NCBI GenBank assembly: GCA_043757545.1
Contig: JAYVPG010000118.1
Coordinates: 17,286 to 81,285 of the forward strand
Length of the DNA: 64,000 bases
Reading direction: 5' to 3'
Source of the DNA: Pseudobdellovibrionaceae bacterium
GTDB taxonomy: Bacteria; Bdellovibrionota; Bdellovibrionia; Bdellovibrionales; UBA1609
The notes beneath the pieces were generated by a model that was not told where the DNA came from, did not search any database, and saw only the letters and a program-made list of their open reading frames with translations. The position numbers and the translations under genes are program-made. Of the stretch, positions 13,536 to 42,125 are shown piece by piece. Numbering within the stretch: position 1 is the stretch's first letter; every line of letters begins with the position of its first letter.

Positions 13536-14729
13536 CTAAAACCGGACCATTGTGAAGCCACCGAGGGGTGACGCGAAGTTGGTGACTTGGCCTTGATAGA
13601 TGCGGGCGACTGCCAGTTGAATCTTGTCGGCGTAGACGTAGAAGCGTAGATCGAACTTCCAGTTGGTCAAAACACTGCGCGGATCATCGGTCGGCATCTT
13701 TTGCGCGGGAGAAAACTGCTGAATCAGGATGTCCTCTTGCATCAGTCGCTCGAAAACTTTTCGCGACACGCTTTCGCCGCGATAAACCGATTTCCCGCCA
13801 TGCGAACGTTTAGGTTTGAAGAAAAGATTTTTCCGTTGTGCCCAAATTTCCTCGGGCGATCCAAAGGCATCTTTCTCAAATGTCGGAATCAAAATTTTCT
13901 CGATGTCGGCGATCTCCTCGGGAGTGGCGCCGGCGGAAATCAAAAATCCAGGGGTTGTGAGTTGAATTAATCGCTGCTTATCAGCTAACAGCCAATATTC
14001 GCGTGGATTCGGAGAGATACACGCCGCGCCGGCTACAAATGCCTCACGCAAAGAAACGTGTTGCGGATCTTCCAAATAAAAATCGGTGAGTCTATTATAA
14101 ACTAAATCAATACGTGGGCCCCAGGGCGTGCTGAGTTTGCCGTCGGTCATTTTAAAGTCGCGGGCCTCGCAGAGCTGAGCGCCCCATCCCTGCTCGCTGA
14201 ACCAGTCTCGGTACATTAAAAATTCACCGTACATTTTCTGCTCGGGGATATCCTCGTCACTAATCGCGATTTGCGGAGTGGCCGACGCCTGACCCCAGAG
14301 CTTCAATTCATCGATAAACGACTGACGCAGTTTGTGCAGAGGTAAATAATCGGCCGGATTTGTCTCAGAATGAGTCATTTCCATTAGACTCGAAAGCATA
14401 AATCCCGAGGCATTGGTGTTTACCTCGACTAAAAAGCAATCGCCGAACTCATTGGTGTGAAAATCATAGGCCATCAACACCGATTCATGGGCCGTTTTAT
14501 TGTCGGAAACGCCTGGAATGGGCTCGAGTAGACCGGCATAGGCATCACGTCGCGAAACCCTGTGCAGAGCGGCGATCGCGCGCGAGGCACGCGATAAAAC
14601 ATTCTTTGGTAACCGCACCTCTAACGGCGAAACCAAATGATCCCACGTCAACGGTGGAATCTCCCCTAAGCTTGGAAAAAGCTTAAGGGCATTCTGCTCC
14701 AGTTTTTTATAGAAAAAATGGTAGGACAA
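13536..14729 (-). CDS. Circularly permuted ATP-grasp ligase (glutathione-synthetase/glutathionylspermidine-synthetase-like fold)
   Basis: YDFH..LVEVNTNA, DLVYNR, PNP..LADK, FFKP..GGKSVYRG, FDLRFY, ARIYQGQVTNF..GGF; TTG start 3 nt after ahpC. Confidence 0.7.
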   Translation of the reverse strand: MSYHFFYKKLEQNALKLFPSLGEIPPLTWDHLVSPLEVRLPKNVLSRASRAIAALHRVSRRDAYAGLLEPIPGVSDNKTAHESVLMAYDFHTNEFGDCFLVEVNTNASGFMLSSLMEMTHSETNPADYLPLHKLRQSFIDELKLWGQASATPQIAISDEDIPEQKMYGEFLMYRDWFSEQGWGAQLCEARDFKMTDGKLSTPWGPRIDLVYNRLTDFYLEDPQHVSLREAFVAGAACISPNPREYWLLADKQRLIQLTTPGFLISAGATPEEIADIEKILIPTFEKDAFGSPEEIWAQRKNLFFKPKRSHGGKSVYRGESVSRKVFERLMQEDILIQQFSPAQKMPTDDPRSVLTNWKFDLRFYVYADKIQLAVARIYQGQVTNFASPLGGFTMVRF

Positions 14730-14732
14730 CGA

Positions 14733-15254
14733 TTAGGCGCCGACGAACTTTTCGCCTTTTTTCCATCCTGCGCCACAGAGTTCACCAGTCTTCAAACCTT
14801 GCAGCACACGCAAAATTTCTTTGCTGTCGCGGCCAACGTTTAAATTGTGAATGCCCATGTATTGAATGCGGCCTTCGGGATCGATGATGAAAGTTCCGCG
14901 GGTGGCGATGCCTTTGTCCTCAAGCAAAACTCCGTAATCGCGTGCCACACGTTTGGTGACATCACCGATCAAAGGATAGCCCAAATTGCCAAGGTCATCT
15001 TTGATCCAGCGGCGATGCGCGTGAACGCTATCAATCGATACGCCCAAAATCTCTGCGCCTTCTGCCTTGAATTCTTTGACGCTGTCGCGGAATTGCGTGA
15101 GCTCAGTCGGGCAGACAAAAGTAAAATCCAAGGGATAAAAGAATAAAACGACCCATTTGCCCTTGTAATCGGCAAGGTTCACATCTTTGAAATCACCACC
15201 ATCAACAACAGCAGGTGCAACAAACTGCGGAGCGGGTTGACCAATCATCGGCAT
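14733..15254 (-). CDS. ahpC: 2-Cys peroxiredoxin (AhpC/TSA)
   Basis: FYPLDFTFVCPTE and resolving GELC; AGGAG RBS before ATG 15254. Confidence 0.92.
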   Translation of the reverse strand: MPMIGQPAPQFVAPAVVDGGDFKDVNLADYKGKWVVLFFYPLDFTFVCPTELTQFRDSVKEFKAEGAEILGVSIDSVHAHRRWIKDDLGNLGYPLIGDVTKRVARDYGVLLEDKGIATRGTFIIDPEGRIQYMGIHNLNVGRDSKEILRVLQGLKTGELCGAGWKKGEKFVGA

Positions 15255-15332
15255 TGTAAGACTCCTTTTGAACGCGGAATTATGAAGCTCTAGGTTTGCC
15301 ATGTTATCGTGCGATACGGAAGGAGAAGTATT

Positions 15333-16100
15333 TTGAAAATTATCACGTGGAATGTGAATGGAATCCGCTCTGTCGTACAAAAGGGTTTTCAGGAGTTCTG
15401 GTCGCAACAGAGTCCTGACATATTTTGCGTGCAAGAAACCAAGGCTCATCCGGATCAGCTACCCGATGACCTGACTTCACCTCCCGGATACAAGGGTTTT
15501 TGGTCCGCTGCGCAACGGCCCGGTTACTCGGGAGTCGCCACGTTCACTAAGAAAGCTCCGTTAAGCGTCGATTACGGAATCCAGATCGCCAAATTTGACG
15601 CAGAGGGGCGGATTGTCGTCACTCATTTCAAGAGCTTCTCCCTCTATAATATCTATTTTCCAAATGGTGGTTCGGGCGACGAACGTCATCAGTACAAGCA
15701 GGAATTTCTCAAGCGCCTGCAATATCACCTGAATAAAAAAGTGCAGGCCGGGGAGAACATCATTGTGGTGGGTGACTATAATGTCGCCTACCTGGATATC
15801 GACGTTTACAATCCAAAAGAGCTTGCCACCGAGAGCGGCTTTTTGCCTGAAGAGAGAAAATGGATGGGGTCGTTTTTGCAGACTGGATTTGTGGATGGCT
15901 TTCGCCATTTTCATCCCGACGAACCAAATCGTTATAGCTGGTGGTCGTACTTTCAGAATGCGCGTATCGGGAACCGAGGATGGAGGATCGATCACATCTG
16001 TGTCTCGAAGGGCCTTGCGAAGAAAATGAAGTCAGTAGATATCTTGGATCAGCAAATGGGGAGTGACCACTGTCCGGTTGTGATGGAGATTGATTTGTAA
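15333..16100 (+). CDS. xth: Exodeoxyribonuclease III
   Basis: ITWNVNGIR, QETK, GYSGVA, GDYNVA, GWRIDH, GSDHCPV; AGGAG RBS and TTG start. Confidence 0.93.
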   Translation: MKIITWNVNGIRSVVQKGFQEFWSQQSPDIFCVQETKAHPDQLPDDLTSPPGYKGFWSAAQRPGYSGVATFTKKAPLSVDYGIQIAKFDAEGRIVVTHFKSFSLYNIYFPNGGSGDERHQYKQEFLKRLQYHLNKKVQAGENIIVVGDYNVAYLDIDVYNPKELATESGFLPEERKWMGSFLQTGFVDGFRHFHPDEPNRYSWWSYFQNARIGNRGWRIDHICVSKGLAKKMKSVDILDQQMGSDHCPVVMEIDL

Positions 16101-31933: not shown

Positions 31934-32236
31934 TTAAAATCCTGAGACTTTCTTCGCAGCGGCCCTCTCCAGCAATTCGTGAATCAAAGTTTGATAAGGC
32001 TTGTGCTGTTTGGAAGCCAATTTTCTCAGGCGTTCAAGAAGTTTTGGATCAATACGAATAGCGATTAGCTGTTTGGCATTACCAGTGACCGGGCGGCCAA
32101 CTCTCCTGGCCCGCTTCAGCTCCTCATCAGTAGATTCGGGGATATCTGAAAAATCGATCTCACGATCCTTCATAAGCTTTGCGCTCTTTGCGGCTCGCTT
32201 TCCTTGCGCTGATGATACGGATTGTTTCTTTGCCAT
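31934..32236 (-). CDS. brnA: BrnA-family antitoxin (RHH)
   Basis: IDFSDIPE, GRP..AKQLIAIRIDP, KPYQTLIHELL. Confidence 0.85.
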   Translation of the reverse strand: MAKKQSVSSAQGKRAAKSAKLMKDREIDFSDIPESTDEELKRARRVGRPVTGNAKQLIAIRIDPKLLERLRKLASKQHKPYQTLIHELLERAAAKKVSGF

Positions 32237-32444
32237 TTTTTAATCTCCTGGTTGTATAAACCACCAATAAAAGTCTGCTCTGAATGGAGAGCCCAAGACG
32301 CTTGATTCTGGGTTCACGTTGGGAATGGTCAGAATCTTCCCAATCTAACCCCTCTGGATCAGCAAATACCGTGGACGCCTCCTCAAATGGGACTTCATGC
32401 TTTTCATAGTTGCTGATTGCCTTTTGAGTGTCCCAAGAGAACAT
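32160..32444 (-). CDS. brnT: BrnT-family RNase toxin
   Basis: FSWD..K..N..KH.V.FEEA..VF.DP, HS..E.R, IRIISARKASRKERKAY. Confidence 0.9.
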   Translation of the reverse strand: MFSWDTQKAISNYEKHEVPFEEASTVFADPEGLDWEDSDHSQREPRIKRLGLSIQSRLLLVVYTTRRLKNGKETIRIISARKASRKERKAYEGS

Positions 32445-32567: not shown

Positions 32568-32583
32568 TGGCATCAGACTTGCT
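32568..32583 (+). promoter_or_regulatory. Sigma54 (-24/-12) promoter
   Basis: TGGCAT-CAGAC-TTGCT, exact GG-N10-GC spacing, ~80 nt upstream of ORF 32662. Confidence 0.7.
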
Positions 32584-32661: not shown

Positions 32662-35600
32662 ATGCGACAAAGAAGTAAAATATATTGGTTCGCCCTCATT
32701 CTTGCTTTTGCCGGGCAAACGGCTATGGCCGCTTCGAAAAAGAACCCCACAAAGGCATCATGTGAGAAATTGCTCACGTCGCAATCCGAATTGGACTTTG
32801 CTTTCGCGGTTCAGGCTTTAGCGGGTCCCGACATCAAAGAGTTAGTGAATCGCATAACCTCTGGCCAAATTCATTTTTCTTCGGAAAGATGGAAAAGCCT
32901 TCTCTTGTTAGATTCTAAATTAAAAGAGTCCAAGCTAATTTATTCAATTGCAACTTTTCAAGACCAGCTCAATCCCATCGACGTAGTCGAAATGAAAATT
33001 CTGGCATCCCATTCTGAACACCGCCTGACCTATAGCCACCGCGATTTTGAAAGTGACCTCAAAAGAATTAAATTCAAAGACCTTTCAATGGGTTCCTTCA
33101 CTGTTATTATGACTGAAGCCGTCGGAAGATCCGAAGTCTCAGAGACAATCAAATCCCTCAAGGTTCCCGAAGACAAGATGATCGAGTTCCTGATTTCATT
33201 CTTGGCGCAAGACTCGGAATTCGACGAGCTTGCAAATCCCACGCTAGCTGCCGACCCTACCCAGTGGCCGATGCGCCGTGGGAAACCGGCGACATCCAAG
33301 AATTATAAAAATAATTTACGCCGCTTGATCTCAACGGGCCCTTTCGATCAGTTGAATATCAGAAGGGTTGAAAACAGGGCAAAACTTGCAATGGTTGCGT
33401 GCTACTTTTTTCCCGATATCGCCCGTGAAGCACTTTTACGAGCTCCTAAAGATGAAGATGCCAAGACCACACAAACAGAGTGGAAAGAGGCGATGGCAGC
33501 ACTTGACAGGCCTAGCTACCTCAAATCTCTGGCGTGGCTACTCGCAAAGGGGGGCGATGGCGAAAGAGAATTGAAACTGGTACTCGATCTACCCGCTCCA
33601 GCTCTTTCACATACGGACCTATTAACCTTTTGGGTCAACATCCTCTCTGATCAAATAGGAGATGGATGGAGTCTTGAATCTGTCTCCAGCAGATCCCTTT
33701 ACAGCTACAAGGGCTACGAAATATTATCTCTCAAAGATAGACGGGAAATATTGATTCGGTTTCTGAATCAAATACCTGCGTCCACTTTTTCAGGTCCCGC
33801 CTACGGCAGAAATAATAGGCTGACATCGATGGAAAATTTTTTTACTCAATGGTTAAACGTTCGGCCTCTGTCAATGGCTGCTGCGACCGCCGGCCTAACT
33901 GCCACGCTCATGGCCAAGGCACCAGACTATATTGTTGAATCGACCCTAGGTTTGCAATTGGGTGACCTCATGAAATTGCATCTTTTAAGTGAAGACGGCA
34001 AGCCCGGCCTGCAAGAGGAGCTCAGGTCCTTTGCAAAGCAGTATCCGAGCCTGCTTCCACCAACAATTGTAGAAACGTTTTGGGACAAAGCTTTAGACGT
34101 CGCCATCGTTCGCAAATTCTTTCGCTATTACACGACTCATCTACCTCGCCGCCACGGCGATGAAGCAACCGTAGCATCGTCTTTTATCCCTGAAACCTCA
34201 CTGCAGTTAATGTGTGAGATCGTTGGATGGCAAAAAAACTGCGCCGCCATTAAACAAAGCAAAATATATGACAATCCGGGTACGTTTTATTCCATTCTTT
34301 TTGACCTACAGTCCCGTTTTAACGATCCGATATTTGCAGACGTAGAATTCGAACCAACAGCATTCGACAGCAAAGAGCACCTTTTTGATTTTTTAAATTC
34401 CCTGCGCAATATTCTCAATCTGCACTTAAGTTCAAGGCGAGATTCGGATTCCGGCGACGACGAGAGTACGATCGGCTCAACCATGAGCACGGCGGACTGG
34501 AAAAATTTTTTAGTCCGACAGGGGATAGACCGGTCGATCTCTGATAAAAATATTGAGTCCCTCACCCAAAAAATTAACCAAGAAATTTTGGCTAAGGTGA
34601 ATGGGATTTTTACTGATACTGATACTGATAATGCTTCACAAAAAAAATCTAAGTCTCGTGCCGGGGGCCCTTCGGTAGTGCTAACTACCGAAAATCTACA
34701 AAAGCTACTGAACGAGTGGGGCAATCTTGAGTCAATCACAACCCTAGTATCCCGTCTTTCTGGTTCCAAAAGTGCCACCTGGAATCGTGAAATTCCAGTT
34801 CTTAAAGAAGTATTTCAGCAATCTGTGATGGGAACATTTGCCCAATATAAATTTGAGTCGGCAGAAGCAAAGAACCAACTTGAGGGGCTTAGCAAAAAAC
34901 AAGTCGACGCTTGGAAAGAAAATAGATACCTACTGACCAAGGCAAGCGGAGGCACCCAAGACCAAAGTGATCTGCGCGATAATTTTGCGAAGATCGTTGC
35001 AACTAATTTAATTCCACATTCTGAAGCGGTAAAGGCCCATGATGCAAATCCAGGCATGCCGTTTTCTGATAGCCTCGGCTTGGACTCGTTGTTGAGTGAA
35101 ATTCAAGCGCAAGTGAATCAGGGCGACCCGGCAAAACTAATTTCGAAAATCATGACGGATCAAAGCCCAAAACTAAATGATAAAGAAACCTCTCTACTCT
35201 TGGCGCGGCTTTTTAAAAATGTGGTCGCAAAGTTAGGTAAAGTCGACGCCGTTGAGGCCGCTGAGCTTCGCACTTTGGCGCGTATCGGTTTGGGCTTAGT
35301 TCAGCAGCAACAGCTGGAGGTTGAAGCCAGTGATAGAACACAGCTTCAGTCAGATTTTAAATCGCTCATCAAGATATTCATGACGGAGCTTGCCGTGGCT
35401 AGAAAAAGTTCTCTCATATTTTCGGTACTGTCCTCAGACCCAGTTTTAATGTTAACCATTGGTGATTTGGTCGATACCACATCTTGCCAAAACTATCGCA
35501 CTGGCGGAATGATTCAAACCCTGCTTGGCTACGTCATTGACGCAAACGTAAGGGCACTTGCGAGCTTTGAGATAGGTATGGGTCAGTTTGCGAATCAAAA

Positions 35601-36024
35601 TGACTTTCACCAGTTATACCAGGCATTGTCTCAGGGCGTGCCCGTGAATACGGAATGGAATGGCAACAATCGAACCGCCGTATTCTCATGGAGCGACGCC
35701 GGCGCGAGACAGAGTGTATCAACGCACCCCCTGGGACATGCCTATTTGCGACAAATAGTTCGCATTGGCAACACCGTCGATGAAGACGGATCGACTAAAA
35801 TCGGGACCTTACTCGAGCGAGAGTATTTGCAAAATAATTCAGAATTGGCATCCATGCGCGAAAATCATCAAGCTATTTTTGCGCAACTGAATAGTGAGCT
35901 TGGAGCTTACAACCATGGCACTATCACCTTCAGGGAGACGAGAAACCCGGGCGGCGTTTACTCGGATGCAGGTCGCGGAATTCAAAATCGTGAGTTCTGC
36001 GTGGAAGTCTCAAGTGACAAATAG
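32662..36024 (+). CDS. Large exported hypothetical protein (1120 aa)
   Basis: Long ORF, Sec-type signal peptide ending AMA, mostly helical body, conserved-looking C-terminal domain (IGD..TSCQNY..G, LGYVID, RQIVRI, LEREY, GVYSD). Confidence 0.85.
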   Translation: MRQRSKIYWFALILAFAGQTAMAASKKNPTKASCEKLLTSQSELDFAFAVQALAGPDIKELVNRITSGQIHFSSERWKSLLLLDSKLKESKLIYSIATFQDQLNPIDVVEMKILASHSEHRLTYSHRDFESDLKRIKFKDLSMGSFTVIMTEAVGRSEVSETIKSLKVPEDKMIEFLISFLAQDSEFDELANPTLAADPTQWPMRRGKPATSKNYKNNLRRLISTGPFDQLNIRRVENRAKLAMVACYFFPDIAREALLRAPKDEDAKTTQTEWKEAMAALDRPSYLKSLAWLLAKGGDGERELKLVLDLPAPALSHTDLLTFWVNILSDQIGDGWSLESVSSRSLYSYKGYEILSLKDRREILIRFLNQIPASTFSGPAYGRNNRLTSMENFFTQWLNVRPLSMAAATAGLTATLMAKAPDYIVESTLGLQLGDLMKLHLLSEDGKPGLQEELRSFAKQYPSLLPPTIVETFWDKALDVAIVRKFFRYYTTHLPRRHGDEATVASSFIPETSLQLMCEIVGWQKNCAAIKQSKIYDNPGTFYSILFDLQSRFNDPIFADVEFEPTAFDSKEHLFDFLNSLRNILNLHLSSRRDSDSGDDESTIGSTMSTADWKNFLVRQGIDRSISDKNIESLTQKINQEILAKVNGIFTDTDTDNASQKKSKSRAGGPSVVLTTENLQKLLNEWGNLESITTLVSRLSGSKSATWNREIPVLKEVFQQSVMGTFAQYKFESAEAKNQLEGLSKKQVDAWKENRYLLTKASGGTQDQSDLRDNFAKIVATNLIPHSEAVKAHDANPGMPFSDSLGLDSLLSEIQAQVNQGDPAKLISKIMTDQSPKLNDKETSLLLARLFKNVVAKLGKVDAVEAAELRTLARIGLGLVQQQQLEVEASDRTQLQSDFKSLIKIFMTELAVARKSSLIFSVLSSDPVLMLTIGDLVDTTSCQNYRTGGMIQTLLGYVIDANVRALASFEIGMGQFANQNDFHQLYQALSQGVPVNTEWNGNNRTAVFSWSDAGARQSVSTHPLGHAYLRQIVRIGNTVDEDGSTKIGTLLEREYLQNNSELASMRENHQAIFAQLNSELGAYNHGTITFRETRNPGGVYSDAGRGIQNREFCVEVSSDK

Positions 36025-36042: not shown

Positions 36043-39000
36043 ATGAAGAATTTATTTATTCAATTTGTACTATTGGCGACGGTAGGAGTCGGGACTCAGA
36101 GCTCGGCAGCTTCATTCCAGAGCAGATTGGAAGTCCATGGGAGCAATGCTGCCAAGATAATCCTCACCGTTGCCGAATTTGTTGGCGATGCTGAAGTTGA
36201 GGCTATCAAAAGTGAAACCTCTCATCGAATTGAGGGGCGCGATTCTGAGGCCAATGACATTTTGGATACGTTGGTTCGGATGAAGTCGCGAATGCCGGTT
36301 CTAGTTGCGCCGCCCGGGGTTGGCAAAACGGCAATCGTACAAAGGGCAATTCAAAAGACTATTACACGAGATTACCCTGACTCACCGGCATTCCAAGAGG
36401 GGTTAGCTAAAGCTGAGTGGATTCAAATTACACCGGGCCGTATTATGAAGATTGCCAAATCAACCAACGATATATCTAAAGCAAAGGCCATTGAAGATTT
36501 TTTTGATGCGGTCATTTCGATTGAAGCAGAGCTCAAGGTCAAAGTGATTGTCTTTATGGATGAAGTTCACAATTTAGATCCAAGTCAGGTCGAGGCGCTT
36601 TTGCCATATCTCGAATCTCAAGGCAAGAGTGTTCGCTTTGTGGGTGCTACAAATGCAAACAAGCTGACGCTTGCTTTTGGCGACAATGAAGCATTTTTAC
36701 GCAGGATGAGGACTATAGCTGTTCAAGAATTTGATGACGAGACGATACTAAATTTGATCGACAAATCGTGGATTCCCACTATTCAGAGCAAGTACGCTGT
36801 CCAATTTTCTGATGAAGCCAAACGTAGGTTTATTGCGTTTGGGACTATATTAAACCCTGATGGAGGAAAGTTTGATGCGGCAATTAAAGTTGCGCAAGAC
36901 TTTGCAATTTGGAATCAGCGAAACAAGAAGGAAAAAATTCTGTCCCAAGAAAATCTATTCGATTTTTTTAAGGAAAAAACGGGGTTTCCTGTGGATCCTT
37001 TCAACCGTTCTGAACTTCGTCAATATCTTGACTCAATCCAAAAGACCATAACCGCAAAGTTAGTTGGCCAGCCCCGTATGATTCAAGATGCCCTCGATAT
37101 ATTTCGGGATATCATTCTTGGCACAAAAAAAGAGATGGGCGTTCTTGCTATCGTTGGGCCCTCCGGAACTGGAAAAACTGAATTGGGCAAGATGATCGCC
37201 AAATATGGTTTTAACAATCCACGGTCGTTTCTAAAAATCGATGCTACGGAATACAGCGGAGAAAACGACGGAGCATTTAATAAGCTGTTTGGCGCAGCTA
37301 GTGGACTTGTAACATCCAATAAACGTGTAGGCATTTTACCTGAATATTTTGATGACCCCTCGCAGGGAAAATACGGCGGAGTCCTTCTAATTGACGAAGC
37401 GGAGCGCGCGTCGCCCAACTTCTGGGAAAGACTTATGGAGTTTTTTGAAGAAGGCACTTTTCGCGGTGGCGATGGAAAATTGCGCAAAGCGCGTCGCCAT
37501 ATCGTAATCTTGACAAGCAATCGCGGCGATAAAATTCTTTTTCCTGAAGAAATGCAAAAGCTCGAGAAAAGCCGGGTCATTGATTACGCCAACTCCGTTC
37601 AAGAATCTGATATCAAGAAGCTATTTCAGATAAAAACGAGCGGCAAAGACGATTTTCAAATTCCGGTGCCGGTATTGAATCGCATTGACCGGTTTACGAT
37701 TTCCGTACCTCTTCACGCCGACGACGTTGCCGAGATCTCTACCAATTTCGCGCTCAATGAAACGCTTGCGATTGAGTCCCTTTTCCAAATGTCTCTTAAG
37801 CTCGACTCCAAAATTGTGGGCCGAATTGGCAAAACTTCGTTTGACCCACAGTATGGCGCAAGACCTACGGAGCGCGCTTTGGCTACGTTTTTTAATCGGA
37901 TCAAGGACAAGATTTTGTCGTCATCTGAGGCAATTAAAGACCAAGTGCTCACGGTTGACGAAGAAGTCGTCTCGGCAGATGACGCGAATGCAGTTGGTAG
38001 GATCGCAGGAAACGTTCTTTTTAAACTTAAACTTCCAAGACTGATTCTTGATGAGCCCTTGCTCGGTAGCGAGCTCGCGGAAAAAATAAAGCAATTTGAT
38101 GAAGTCGTTGCCAAAATGATTATTGGTCAAGATGACGCCGTAAAAAGAGTGCGCGAAGCAGTAATCTCGTTTCTGTCTACACCAAAAAAAATGAGAGGAA
38201 CTTTTAGTGTCATGTTGCTAGGGCCAACTGGTGTTGGAAAAACCGAATTGGGCAAAGCGGTCGCGATGGCATTGTTTGGCGGGTCTAGTCAGGCGGAGAT
38301 CATTCCCATGGGCGAAATCTTGCGTGAGTCAGACTTTACAACAATCATTGGCTCGTCGCCAGGTTACGTTGGGTCATTGGAAGTGCGCAGGCTCGAGAAA
38401 GCCCTCATGAGCCATCCCGACGGCGGGGTAATCGTGCTCGATGAATTTAGCAATATGGGCGGCAAAGACCCGACAGTAAAAGAAGAACTCATCATGCGGC
38501 TATATAATTTTTTTGAAGAGGGGCGATGGACCTCGAGCGCAACCGGCACCACCTATGACTTGACCAAATATTTGTTTGTGCTGACAGGTAACGATGGCGA
38601 AGAGCTCTATCGTGGCATTAGCTCTGACCAGATTCGTTTGGAAACTTGGAAGAGGAACAATGGGCCAGCCGTTTTGCATAAAATGCTTGTTAGCAAGGGT
38701 GTGCCAGAAGCATTTCTTGGACGTCAGGCAGACATTATAGACATGAAGCCCCTTATGCGTAGCGAAGTAAAAGGAGTCGCAGATAAACTGATTGAACCGA
38801 TTGTGCGGCGATTTTCAAACCTAGGCTACAAAGTCGAGGTCTCAGAGAACTTCAACGAACAGTTCGGCAAGATGTTTTTTACCCAAGATAAAGGAGCTCG
38901 GTCGCTTCGCTCAATAGCGCAAGTTAAATTAAACGCTCTAATCTCCGAGGCCGTTAGTATTTCCAAAGCCTCAGGCAAAACGGCAAATGAAGGCAGATGG

Positions 39001-39807
39001 ATTAAAATTGAAATTTTGCACAACCTCGATTCGAAACCCTACATTGAGGACCCTCAATTTTTGTCCAAGGTAGAAATCACAGTGCAGGTTGGGCAGAAAT
39101 CTTTAACTGAAATTAGTCTCTCCCGAGACGTCACACAGTTTGCCGCCATCGACAAGAAGCTAAGTAAAAAGCAAGCTCTTGCGACGGCCTATCACGAAGC
39201 CGGGCATGCAGTTATGAACGACTTTGAGGTTACCGGATCAAAACTTAAATACGTTACTGTATTAGGGTCCGAGGGAAATCTCGGTTTTGCTCTTTACGAA
39301 GATGCTAAAGATCATAATTATAGTCCCACAGATGAAGCCAAGCTCAAGATTTTACTGAGTCGTTCACTTGGAGGCCAAGTGGCTATGGTCATGGGCGGTC
39401 ACGCTCCCGACGCTGGATGGGGTGGAGACCTTTTAACGGCCAGGAAACTTGCACAAAAATACGTTTCTGAATGGTCCCTAAATAAGGAATTATTAGGCAT
39501 GGTCATCGGCAAGGACGACGCACCGGTATTCAGCCAAGCACAAATCACCCAAATTTCTGCGAGCTCGGAACACCTTCTAACACAATCAATTGATTACACG
39601 ATTGAAACTCTAGCGAAGAGATGGGACTTAATCGAGGCTGTGAAATCTAAGCTGATGGAGGACGGCTACGTGACTGAAGATCAATTTGATCAGATGAAGC
39701 GAAATTGGATTGAAAGCGACTTGGGAGAAAACCCCAGCGCCAAGCCGATGCGAAGCGACTGTGCAGAGTTGTTGATTTCAAGGCCAAAAAGTGGAAATCG
39801 CAGGTGA
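36043..39807 (+). CDS. Signal-peptide-bearing triple AAA+ (Clp-like) ATPase fused to an M41 (FtsH-like) zinc protease domain
   Basis: Walker A APPGVGKT, GPSGTGKT, GPTGVGKT; Walker B FMDEVH, LIDEAE, VLDEFS; TAYHEAGHA..LGG..GGDL. Confidence 0.85.
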   Translation: MKNLFIQFVLLATVGVGTQSSAASFQSRLEVHGSNAAKIILTVAEFVGDAEVEAIKSETSHRIEGRDSEANDILDTLVRMKSRMPVLVAPPGVGKTAIVQRAIQKTITRDYPDSPAFQEGLAKAEWIQITPGRIMKIAKSTNDISKAKAIEDFFDAVISIEAELKVKVIVFMDEVHNLDPSQVEALLPYLESQGKSVRFVGATNANKLTLAFGDNEAFLRRMRTIAVQEFDDETILNLIDKSWIPTIQSKYAVQFSDEAKRRFIAFGTILNPDGGKFDAAIKVAQDFAIWNQRNKKEKILSQENLFDFFKEKTGFPVDPFNRSELRQYLDSIQKTITAKLVGQPRMIQDALDIFRDIILGTKKEMGVLAIVGPSGTGKTELGKMIAKYGFNNPRSFLKIDATEYSGENDGAFNKLFGAASGLVTSNKRVGILPEYFDDPSQGKYGGVLLIDEAERASPNFWERLMEFFEEGTFRGGDGKLRKARRHIVILTSNRGDKILFPEEMQKLEKSRVIDYANSVQESDIKKLFQIKTSGKDDFQIPVPVLNRIDRFTISVPLHADDVAEISTNFALNETLAIESLFQMSLKLDSKIVGRIGKTSFDPQYGARPTERALATFFNRIKDKILSSSEAIKDQVLTVDEEVVSADDANAVGRIAGNVLFKLKLPRLILDEPLLGSELAEKIKQFDEVVAKMIIGQDDAVKRVREAVISFLSTPKKMRGTFSVMLLGPTGVGKTELGKAVAMALFGGSSQAEIIPMGEILRESDFTTIIGSSPGYVGSLEVRRLEKALMSHPDGGVIVLDEFSNMGGKDPTVKEELIMRLYNFFEEGRWTSSATGTTYDLTKYLFVLTGNDGEELYRGISSDQIRLETWKRNNGPAVLHKMLVSKGVPEAFLGRQADIIDMKPLMRSEVKGVADKLIEPIVRRFSNLGYKVEVSENFNEQFGKMFFTQDKGARSLRSIAQVKLNALISEAVSISKASGKTANEGRWIKIEILHNLDSKPYIEDPQFLSKVEITVQVGQKSLTEISLSRDVTQFAAIDKKLSKKQALATAYHEAGHAVMNDFEVTGSKLKYVTVLGSEGNLGFALYEDAKDHNYSPTDEAKLKILLSRSLGGQVAMVMGGHAPDAGWGGDLLTARKLAQKYVSEWSLNKELLGMVIGKDDAPVFSQAQITQISASSEHLLTQSIDYTIETLAKRWDLIEAVKSKLMEDGYVTEDQFDQMKRNWIESDLGENPSAKPMRSDCAELLISRPKSGNRR

Positions 39808-41033: not shown

Positions 41034-42125
41034 ATGTACATGAAAATATTTATTGCTATCGCTGTGTTGCAGATCTCGACGCCGGCACTGGCCGTCAAAA
41101 GTACTGTAAATGGCTCTACTCCAAGTAAGGCTTGTGAGGTGGTTCTAACAGCTGTAAGGCAGGATCTCAGGCAGACTTCAGAGATCACAACGAATAAACC
41201 CGAAATAGCAAAGATTCTTGGAAAGGACGTCTCTTCTATATACTCCACGTCGACCTCCCTCAATCAACGAGCTGCTTTTGTTGATACGCGCGAAGGAGAA
41301 TCTTATTTTGTAGATATCAAAAATAAAGTCTCACTGCGTGTCGATTGGAATATTACCTCGAACGTCAAGGCCGGTAATAGCGAGTGGAGTCAAGATGGCA
41401 GGCGCGTCTTACTAAAGGGATTCTCAGCCCGCATGATTGATATTTCCAATTTTCTAAATGGCCAGGATAGCGTTAACGCCACAGTTCCTCTGACAGAGAT
41501 GGATCCCTTCTATCGCACTGGAAACTATACCCCCGAATCGACGTACGTTAATAAATTAGCGCTCTCGAAAAATGGCAAAATGGTGTTTATAGGCACTGAC
41601 CCCGTGATCCTGAAGTATCCTCTCGATTCACTCGTTCCAGAGGAAACTGTCAGACTCGATAACACATTTATAATTGATGGTCGCCCATGCGAAATGAACT
41701 CTTTAGATTATATTTTTAAGAAATTTTCTGACGACAGTCGTAGGTTGGCTATTGTGTCAAAATTTTATGATCGCCGAGTTAATGAGACCATGATTGTCGC
41801 TCTTATTTACGACACTCTATCAGGGCGCCTTTTGGTAGCCCAAAAATTGACTACTGTATTAATACCGAAACTCAATGATCGAAGCCAGTTGCAGTCCGTT
41901 GGGGCTCAATTGAAGCGTGACTTGGGATGGAACTACGCTGCGATGTCCAGAGAACAACATTTAAAAAATGTTAAGATTGATTTTTCAAAGGAAAAACTGC
42001 GGATTACCTTAGAGTCACAAGACTTGATAGTCGGAGAGTACAGTCACAATGGGGCTACGGCATATGTGCCACAAATTCCTGGAGAGATCCAAAGAAGCCA
42101 GTATTCAATCGACTTGCCAAAATAA
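41034..42125 (+). CDS. Exported hypothetical protein with beta-propeller-like (WD40/PD40-type) repeats
   Basis: Signal peptide ending PALA; WSQDGRRVLL, LSKNGKMVFI, FSDDSRRLAI. Confidence 0.75.
   Translation: MYMKIFIAIAVLQISTPALAVKSTVNGSTPSKACEVVLTAVRQDLRQTSEITTNKPEIAKILGKDVSSIYSTSTSLNQRAAFVDTREGESYFVDIKNKVSLRVDWNITSNVKAGNSEWSQDGRRVLLKGFSARMIDISNFLNGQDSVNATVPLTEMDPFYRTGNYTPESTYVNKLALSKNGKMVFIGTDPVILKYPLDSLVPEETVRLDNTFIIDGRPCEMNSLDYIFKKFSDDSRRLAIVSKFYDRRVNETMIVALIYDTLSGRLLVAQKLTTVLIPKLNDRSQLQSVGAQLKRDLGWNYAAMSREQHLKNVKIDFSKEKLRITLESQDLIVGEYSHNGATAYVPQIPGEIQRSQYSIDLPK

Follow-up and report, generated by a model that had tools for sequence, protein, structure and literature searches.

A predicted Cys-dependent variant of the GNAT fold in a protein family of Bdellovibrionota, encoded in one branch next to an AAA-M41 protease

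Background

In the N-degron pathway a tagging enzyme with a GNAT fold, Aat (L/F-transferase), feeds a Clp-type AAA protease via ClpS/ClpAP. We use this system as a working analogy for two adjacent genes of a Pseudobdellovibrionaceae bacterium (Bdellovibrionota). They are found in a stretch of DNA of 64,000 nucleotides (nt), which we will call the window (GenBank assembly GCA_043757545.1, contig JAYVPG010000118.1, positions 17,286 to 81,285, forward strand). The first gene codes for P0001, a protein of 1120 amino acids (aa), and the second one for a protease with AAA modules and an M41 peptidase (AAA-M41). Compared with Aat/ClpS/ClpAP, P0001 would be tagger and adaptor in one protein, its protease combines three AAA modules and its own M41 zinc peptidase in one chain, and both proteins would be exported. 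No match of P0001 to Aat or ClpS was found in Pfam or NCBIfam.

The GNAT superfamily, with members such as AAC(3)-I/meta-AAC0020 (5f46), GNA1 (6yug), RimI (5isv) and FemX (4ii9), shares with the model of P0001 a core fold of about 100-110 residues, with a root-mean-square deviation (rmsd) of about 3. P0001 differs from these proteins by the absence of the R/Q-x-x-G-x-G/A loop, by an invariant Cys which our mapping places in the loop behind the first helix, by an insertion of about 50 residues and by a 900-residue N-terminal body with a signal peptide. Sequence identity is 2-16%. Another point of comparison is the phage protein Rac, which is described as a predicted GNAT whose action leads to host-protein cleavage (PMC7552054). 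It is similar to our reading of P0001 in that a predicted GNAT is tied to protein cleavage. Unlike P0001, Rac is small, cytoplasmic and of phage origin, and no protease gene is dedicated to it. A literature search, with supplements and subscription papers outside its scope, found no description of the family or of the system studied here; the family is not described in the available parts of PMC5512222, PMC7824862, PMC12419801 and PMC7552054.

For an unannotated family comprising at least 220 clusters, this work puts a name to the predicted fold. It also connects the family to jumbo-phage proteins that had no explanation, so that a single active site could be tested in the two groups. If the pairing with the protease is functional, it would represent a portable module for targeted proteolysis made of only two proteins. 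The signal peptides on an ATP-dependent protease pair also make it testable whether predatory Bdellovibrionota deliver enzymes into the cytoplasm of their prey. A version without signal peptides is known from cultured hosts, with protein records under the names Rhodoblastus acidophilus and Roseiarcus fermentans, and therefore it may be tested without the uncultured host.

Results and discussion

A predicted GNAT-fold domain with an invariant Cys

The C-terminal domain of P0001 is predicted to have a GNAT-type fold. In this region the original prediction, made from the letters of the window, had noticed six enzyme-like motifs, all of which are present: LTIGD (residues 931-935), TSCQNYRTGG (940-949), LLGYVIDAN (954-962), YLRQIVRI (1028-1035), LLEREY (1050-1055) and RNPGGVYSD (1094-1102). 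A structure model of residues 660-1120, with a pLDDT (predicted local distance difference test) of 92.9, contains a helical subdomain, a four-helix insert and an alpha/beta domain. The model of residues 912-1120 alone has a pLDDT of 96.3. The four-helix insert is missing in P0009, a relative of P0001. The long body before the domain had been described as helical; this agrees with the model from residue 660 onwards, which is where the model begins.

When the domain model was compared with 48,161 chains using VIA, GNAT acyltransferases occupied the 50 top rows out of 50, with Z values 6.3-8.7 and a model range 5-208. The best row has Z 8.7 and rmsd 3.2 over 110 residues. These Z values are moderate, but the matches all agree on one fold. 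In the search with the 461-residue model the result rows are filled by the helical bundle. Curated GNAT sequence models are not matched, either in Pfam (E <= 0.1) or in NCBIfam (0.01).

Two residues, Cys942 and Arg1030, are invariant in all 137 aligned relatives; part of this invariance is built in, because the rows were collected by similarity to the same region. A Cys-dependent catalytic domain had been proposed, and the conservation of the Cys is in line with that proposal. In the same alignment D960, E1052 and D1102 are conserved in 98-99% of the rows, Y1100 in 97% and Y1055 in 91%. A second conserved Cys is absent. By our own mapping from the order of strands, Cys942 would sit on the acceptor side, within the loop that follows the first helix, and Arg1030 would start strand beta3. 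Glu1052 and Tyr1055 would close beta4, and the Tyr-x-Asp loop would take the place of the last helix. The pyrophosphate loop which binds acetyl-CoA, R/Q-x-x-G-x-G/A after beta4, was found in 1 of the 137 rows (region 1050-1072, with beta4 placed by DSSP order). By its predicted fold the domain is a GNAT, yet it fails the canonical cofactor signature. We consider that the family is a new Cys-dependent variant of the GNAT fold, previously unannotated.

The missing loop would also agree with a different kind of enzyme, a Cys-dependent transacylase or amidase of the prey envelope, which would need no nucleotide cofactor, be active beyond the cytoplasm and have peptidoglycan, lipoproteins or lipids as its substrate. 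A signal peptide is found in 61 of 117 long relatives, as such an enzyme would have; here and throughout, signal peptides were called by a hydropathy rule and not by SignalP. However, the members from Alphaproteobacteria and many others have no signal peptide, the two phage relatives which were read lack a signal-like start, and the partner protease needs ATP. An envelope enzyme is quite improbable. It may also be asked whether P0001 is an enzyme at all, since the activity of the domain is only predicted and the canonical cofactor loop of GNATs is missing: the Cys could be structural, metal-binding or redox-sensing, and P0001 a pure adaptor or binding module. We find this very improbable, because active sites usually look like this: a lone invariant Cys accompanied by invariant charged residues, which are retained even in a remotely related family of phages.

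The PcfJ-like domain (PF14284) is similar by eye to the domain of P0001, with a lone Cys after a short helix. The comparison with hhalign, for which only five PcfJ sequences were at hand, gave a probability of 0.16, and there is no Pfam match. The label "PcfJ-GNAT" found no confirmation: the hhalign probability against these five sequences is low, the term is absent from the available parts of PMC5512222, PMC7824862 and PMC12419801, and a literature search for it yielded no relevant paper.

Distribution and architecture of the family

The last 240 residues of P0001 match 220 clusters at E <= 0.001. Among them 150 were listed, and 137 of these entered the alignment, with long and partial proteins omitted. 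Where a host is named, it is most often one of the Bdellovibrionota; some belong to Myxococcota, candidate phyla or Alphaproteobacteria. A family gene is present in 22 of 401 genomes of the phylum. P0001 has no match in Pfam (E <= 0.1), PHROG, NCBIfam (0.01), PADLOC 2.0 or the PDB sequences. The family profile has a single weak match in the PDB, to a helical repeat, outside the C-terminal domain. As candidates for a non-ATPase component, P0001, P0070 and P0011 match no profile of the known anti-phage defence systems in PADLOC 2.0. A tblastn search gave no match in 50,697 phage records and two in plasmids, at chance level; no match was found in viral contigs, and the ESM Atlas gave either nothing or scores of 0.80-0.82 only.

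The N-terminal part of these proteins is variable. At least three helical repeats of about 30 residues are found in 27 of 151 proteins and in none of the shuffled sequences; they are absent from P0001. Single members have ankyrin or TPR repeats. In the helical subdomain residues L682, W686, L695, R698, F726, K730 and W751 are 92-97% conserved. An extreme case is P0017, from Bdellovibrionota, a giant repeat protein of at least 5000 aa with one Cys-GNAT domain and three M41-like HExxH units, without AAA.

The position of the domain is much more uniform: in 145 of the 151 proteins it ends 30 residues or less from the C-terminus, as in processed toxins. This might mean that P0001 is the cargo of the AAA-M41 protease, which would unfold it, process it, activate it (for example by freeing the C-terminal enzyme) or restrain it. 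The M41-like peptidases which flank the domain in P0017 are consistent with such a role, as is the autoprocessing by metallopeptidases described for polyvalent proteins (PMC5512222). On the other hand, most relatives have no dedicated protease, and the region conserved together with the C-terminal domain reaches as far towards the N-terminus as residue ~440; no conserved linker stands out. A cargo role appears improbable.

Distant cousins in jumbo phages

The best viral structure matches of the domain (Foldseek probability ~1) are uncharacterised proteins of jumbo phages: Dickeya phage JA29 (653 and 595 aa), Lu11 gp207-209, Atu_ph07 and RsoM2USA. They correspond to phrog_17056/18912, with no function annotated. 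The original prediction had mentioned a likeness to uncharacterised domains of host-associated bacteria and phages, and this phage family has indeed the same predicted fold and the Cys. The relationship was found by structure, not by sequence; the two PHROG profiles are not matched by P0001 or by ten of its relatives. We gathered 25 relatives of the two JA29 proteins, which were located by their length, and dropped two that were mis-cut. The Cys is present in 23 of 23 rows and the motifs have the same order as in P0001: S-x-P, SC, R, E-x-x-Y and Y-x-D. In hhalign the family and phage profiles had a probability of 35.9 when the insertion columns were kept, and of 83.6 (E 8e-6, 102 columns) once about 50 insertion columns had been removed by hand; 30 column-shuffled controls gave 0.82 or less.

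The phage proteins are distant cousins of the P0001 family and not members of it. They differ by having the domain near the N-terminus, without the insertion of ~50 residues and without a signal peptide, and no protease neighbour is annotated. Tandem paralogues are found in several phages, two in JA29 and HRDY3, three in Lu11 (L064:12927-16669, L092:6713-14085, L090:2906-7466).

The protease and its linkage to the family

The gene downstream of P0001 codes for 1254 aa, with three sets of P-loop and Walker B motifs and an M41 peptidase (HEAGH at residue 1051). The protein scores far below the cut-offs of ClpA and ClpB, and PADLOC recognises it with generic AAA profiles only. When metagenomes were scanned with the protease, nothing but a ClpB-like gene came up. 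In the phylum sample there are 40 single-chain genes with three AAA modules and M41, found in 38 of the 401 genomes. Most AAA-M41 proteins have a signal-peptide-like start and an intact HExxH. Their AAA modules are less uniform: the second Walker B is N-E instead of D-E in most proteases unlinked to a family gene, and the first AAA module is missing in one lineage. In the linked proteases (7 of 7) the first Walker A lies at residue 94-116, being degenerate in the two from Alphaproteobacteria; among the 22 unlinked proteases in which the motif is intact, it lies at residue 200 or beyond in 19. The linked proteases lack an N-terminal domain that most unlinked ones have.

Co-occurrence of the two genes had been named as a check in the original prediction, and relatives of P0001 do adjoin a protease gene. 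This is the case in nine genomes: the window, L004/L125, L010/L124, G191, G842, L008, G988, L021 and L022. The linked pairs occur in three gene orders. In L004/L125 the protease gene comes first and there are two family copies, the second without the four-helix insert. The G191 case is divergent, and the family gene is split across two contigs which overlap by 40 nt. The adjacency in G842 is deduced from a 15-nt contig overlap, and the copies in L021 and L022 are frameshifted. Two other loci are incomplete: in L002 a divergent multi-AAA gene breaks off ahead of any peptidase, and of its homologue in L003 only the start is present. In L002:1-5837 the family gene is tandemly duplicated beside the AAA gene, with the second copy split in two open reading frames (ORFs). 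A close AAA-M41 gene was not found in the genomes of L002, L003 and L006.

A tree of 20 family rows, with short and long-branch rows omitted, places the window protein in a clade of nine rows (support 96), all of them adjacent to the protease. Adjacency changes once on this tree, versus 7.0 times in shuffles, and a 45-row tree agrees with the clade. In the protease tree the linked genes form a clade of 13 rows (support 100; eight rows were of unknown context) and a separate pair. The window protease groups more closely with the copies of Alphaproteobacteria than with that of G226, a genome of its own order, which points to transfer. In Alphaproteobacteria the pair is part of a conserved four-gene cassette: alpha/beta-hydrolase, Cys-GNAT, AAA3-M41 and a member of the RPE65/carotenoid-oxygenase family (L127:8705-18084, L126, L021, L022). 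Here both the Cys-GNAT and the protease are without signal peptides. The cassette is rare in this group, with the family gene in 1 of 401 genomes and the protease in 3 of 61 and 2 of 301. Family and protease co-occur in 7 genomes versus 2.1 expected, a count in which kin are not independent. The family is genuinely linked to the protease, though this is specific to one branch.

Another secreted family lacking annotation, with the motif R-G-x-x-G-x-D-C and without a Pfam match, adjoins AAA-M41 genes or a family gene (L036:597-2831, L042:10176-11675 and 14610-16001, L048:10789-12981). It was considered as a relative of the Cys-GNAT family and rejected, with no profile match (probability 0.3-0.9, three sequences). 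Two unlinked family genes adjoin what we take to be lon- and clpA-like genes (L005:9435-11897; L014:9880-12301, 1640-2326), and a presumed aat-like gene lies nearby in L014; they were recognised by eye and by weak tblastn matches.

Proposed mechanism

In the reading that we tentatively favour, P0001 is a Cys-dependent enzyme which modifies proteins and which would act for the protease both as tagger and as adaptor. Both proteins would leave by Sec and reach a compartment with ATP, most likely the prey cytoplasm; ATP is suggested by the three P-loops that the partner retains and by the alphaproteobacterial pair, which does without signal peptides. The helical body of P0001 would pick the target and hand it to the triple-AAA/M41 protease. 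Cys942 would form a thioester, in a site lined by Arg1030, Asp960, Glu1052, Tyr1055, Tyr1100 and Asp1102, and an acyl or aminoacyl group would be moved to target proteins via this Cys. Since there is no pyrophosphate loop, ordinary acetyl-CoA is an improbable donor. The body of P0001 would stand in for the absent N-domain of the protease, as an adaptor in trans. The lack of this domain in the linked proteases fits such a role, and it is also the reason why we favour an adaptor and tagger over a cargo. The AAA rings would then unfold the marked or delivered protein, and M41 would cut it. Family members from other branches may be stand-alone modifying effectors.

A more elaborate version would make the pair an exported two-gene weapon that tags and degrades: P0001 would place a non-acetyl mark on prey proteins and dock them on the protease in the prey cytoplasm, and the Alphaproteobacteria would have captured the pair as a cytoplasmic degradation module. 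It implies that some route carries Sec-exported proteins into another cell. We regard this version as unlikely.

Several observations weigh against P0001 as tagger and adaptor. A GNAT fold alone shows no function; besides, Z values of 8-9 are close to the level reached by unrelated best matches, and Foldseek against the PDB gave weak GNAT rows only, none at E <= 0.001. The proposed reading would also need an entry route into the prey cytoplasm. The AAA protein of L002, beside two family genes, retains the N-domain. At thirteen family loci the flanks, 3-8 kb to either side, contain no AAA-M41 gene, and five more loci are cut by contig ends. Of the 40 AAA-M41 genes, 4 have a family neighbour and 36 have none (13 of these 36 at contig ends). 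The domain can therefore work without the protease, and the two-gene pairing of the original prediction stands for the nine-row clade and not for these loci and genes. The linked cases may come from one or two evolutionary events and would then not be independent trials. The distances of 7 pairs correlate only suggestively (rho 0.51, p 0.055), and the tree of the 205-residue domain leaves the branching order unsettled. The fusion to M41-like peptidases in P0017 speaks for a tie to the protease, but it is found in 1 of 151 proteins and has no AAA module; among the long proteins none was found in which the domain is joined to an AAA module, which is weak evidence.

The main rival, which comes close to the tagger and adaptor, is that the two proteins are independent predation effectors delivered together. 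The Cys-GNAT would modify its own prey target, and the adjacency would result from effector clustering, a shared sigma54 promoter and inheritance or transfer as a block. Most members of each family occur without the other, and AAA-M41 genes often sit in arrays of various unrelated secreted proteins. The alphaproteobacterial block also has the hydrolase and the RPE65-family gene, and the annotation of the flanks read in jumbo phages has no such protease beside the relatives. For Bdellovibrionota, secreted effectors that come as two-gene pairs have been described (PMC12419801). Nevertheless, adjacency persists through three gene orders and the loss of both signal peptides, and the linked proteases lack the N-domain. 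Independent effectors are a plausible, if somewhat doubtful, explanation.

The gene, its promoter and other features

The features of the locus are given in Table 1. The P0001 ORF is uninterrupted from ATG to stop, and the genome holds one copy only. The distance to the protease gene is exactly 18 nt, as the original prediction had it. Because this gap is so short, we infer that both genes are transcribed together from the sigma54 site. The N-terminus has a basic stretch followed by a hydrophobic one (mean hydropathy 2.31 over 11 residues), in agreement with the exported start claimed before. No window of 19 residues has a hydropathy above 1.6, therefore a membrane anchor appears to be absent.

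Table 1. Features of the P0001 locus, in positions of the window
Feature	Position	Strand	Evidence
sigma54-type -24/-12 promoter site	32568..32582	+	pattern, positional enrichment, RpoN
P0001 gene, 1120 aa, single copy	32662..36024	+	ORF
predicted signal peptide, residues ~1-23	32662..32730	+	sequence, hydropathy rule
C-x-x-L-L motif after the signal peptide, common to many relatives	32758..32775	+	sequence, alignment
variable N-terminal body, residues 40-660, likely target-binding scaffold	32779..34641	+	sequence, architectures of relatives
conserved helical subdomain, residues 676-752	34687..34917	+	alignment, model
four-helix-bundle insert, residues 765-914	34954..35403	+	model; no counterpart in relative P0009
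predicted GNAT-fold domain, residues 916-1119, with ~50-residue insertion, without canonical acetyl-CoA loop	35407..36018	+	model, structure search
Cys942, invariant, predicted nucleophile	35485..35487	+	137/137 rows
Arg1030, invariant	35749..35751	+	137/137 rows
partner protease gene: signal peptide, three ClpB-like AAA modules, M41 zinc peptidase, no N-terminal domain	36043..39807	+	profiles, motifs
HEAGH of the partner M41 peptidase	39193-39207	+	motif

The promoter site, which had also been predicted, has the sequence TGGCA-N6-TTGC and lies 80 nt upstream of the ATG. In the genome, 16 of 33 sites with the correct spacing are found 200 nt or less upstream of an ORF, whereas six other spacer lengths give 0-3, and an RpoN box is encoded in the same genome. 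This enrichment, specific for the spacing, together with the RpoN box indicates that the site is more than a chance match. Upstream of the genes of relatives a sigma54 site is kept at 1 of 17 loci. In genome G000 there are 16 ORFs with a strict upstream sigma54 site, 10 of them with signal-like starts, which make a candidate sigma54 regulon of exported proteins.

The C-x-x-L-L pattern is also found near the end of the protease (~39757-39774; C1240 is present in at least 90% of 20 aligned sequences) and in the gene at 41034. Shared in this way by P0001 and the protease, it is possibly a tag for export or targeting. Finally, two small overlapping ORFs at 31934-32444 on the minus strand of the window are divergent from the promoter; by eye we take them to be a lookalike of the BrnT/BrnA toxin-antitoxin.

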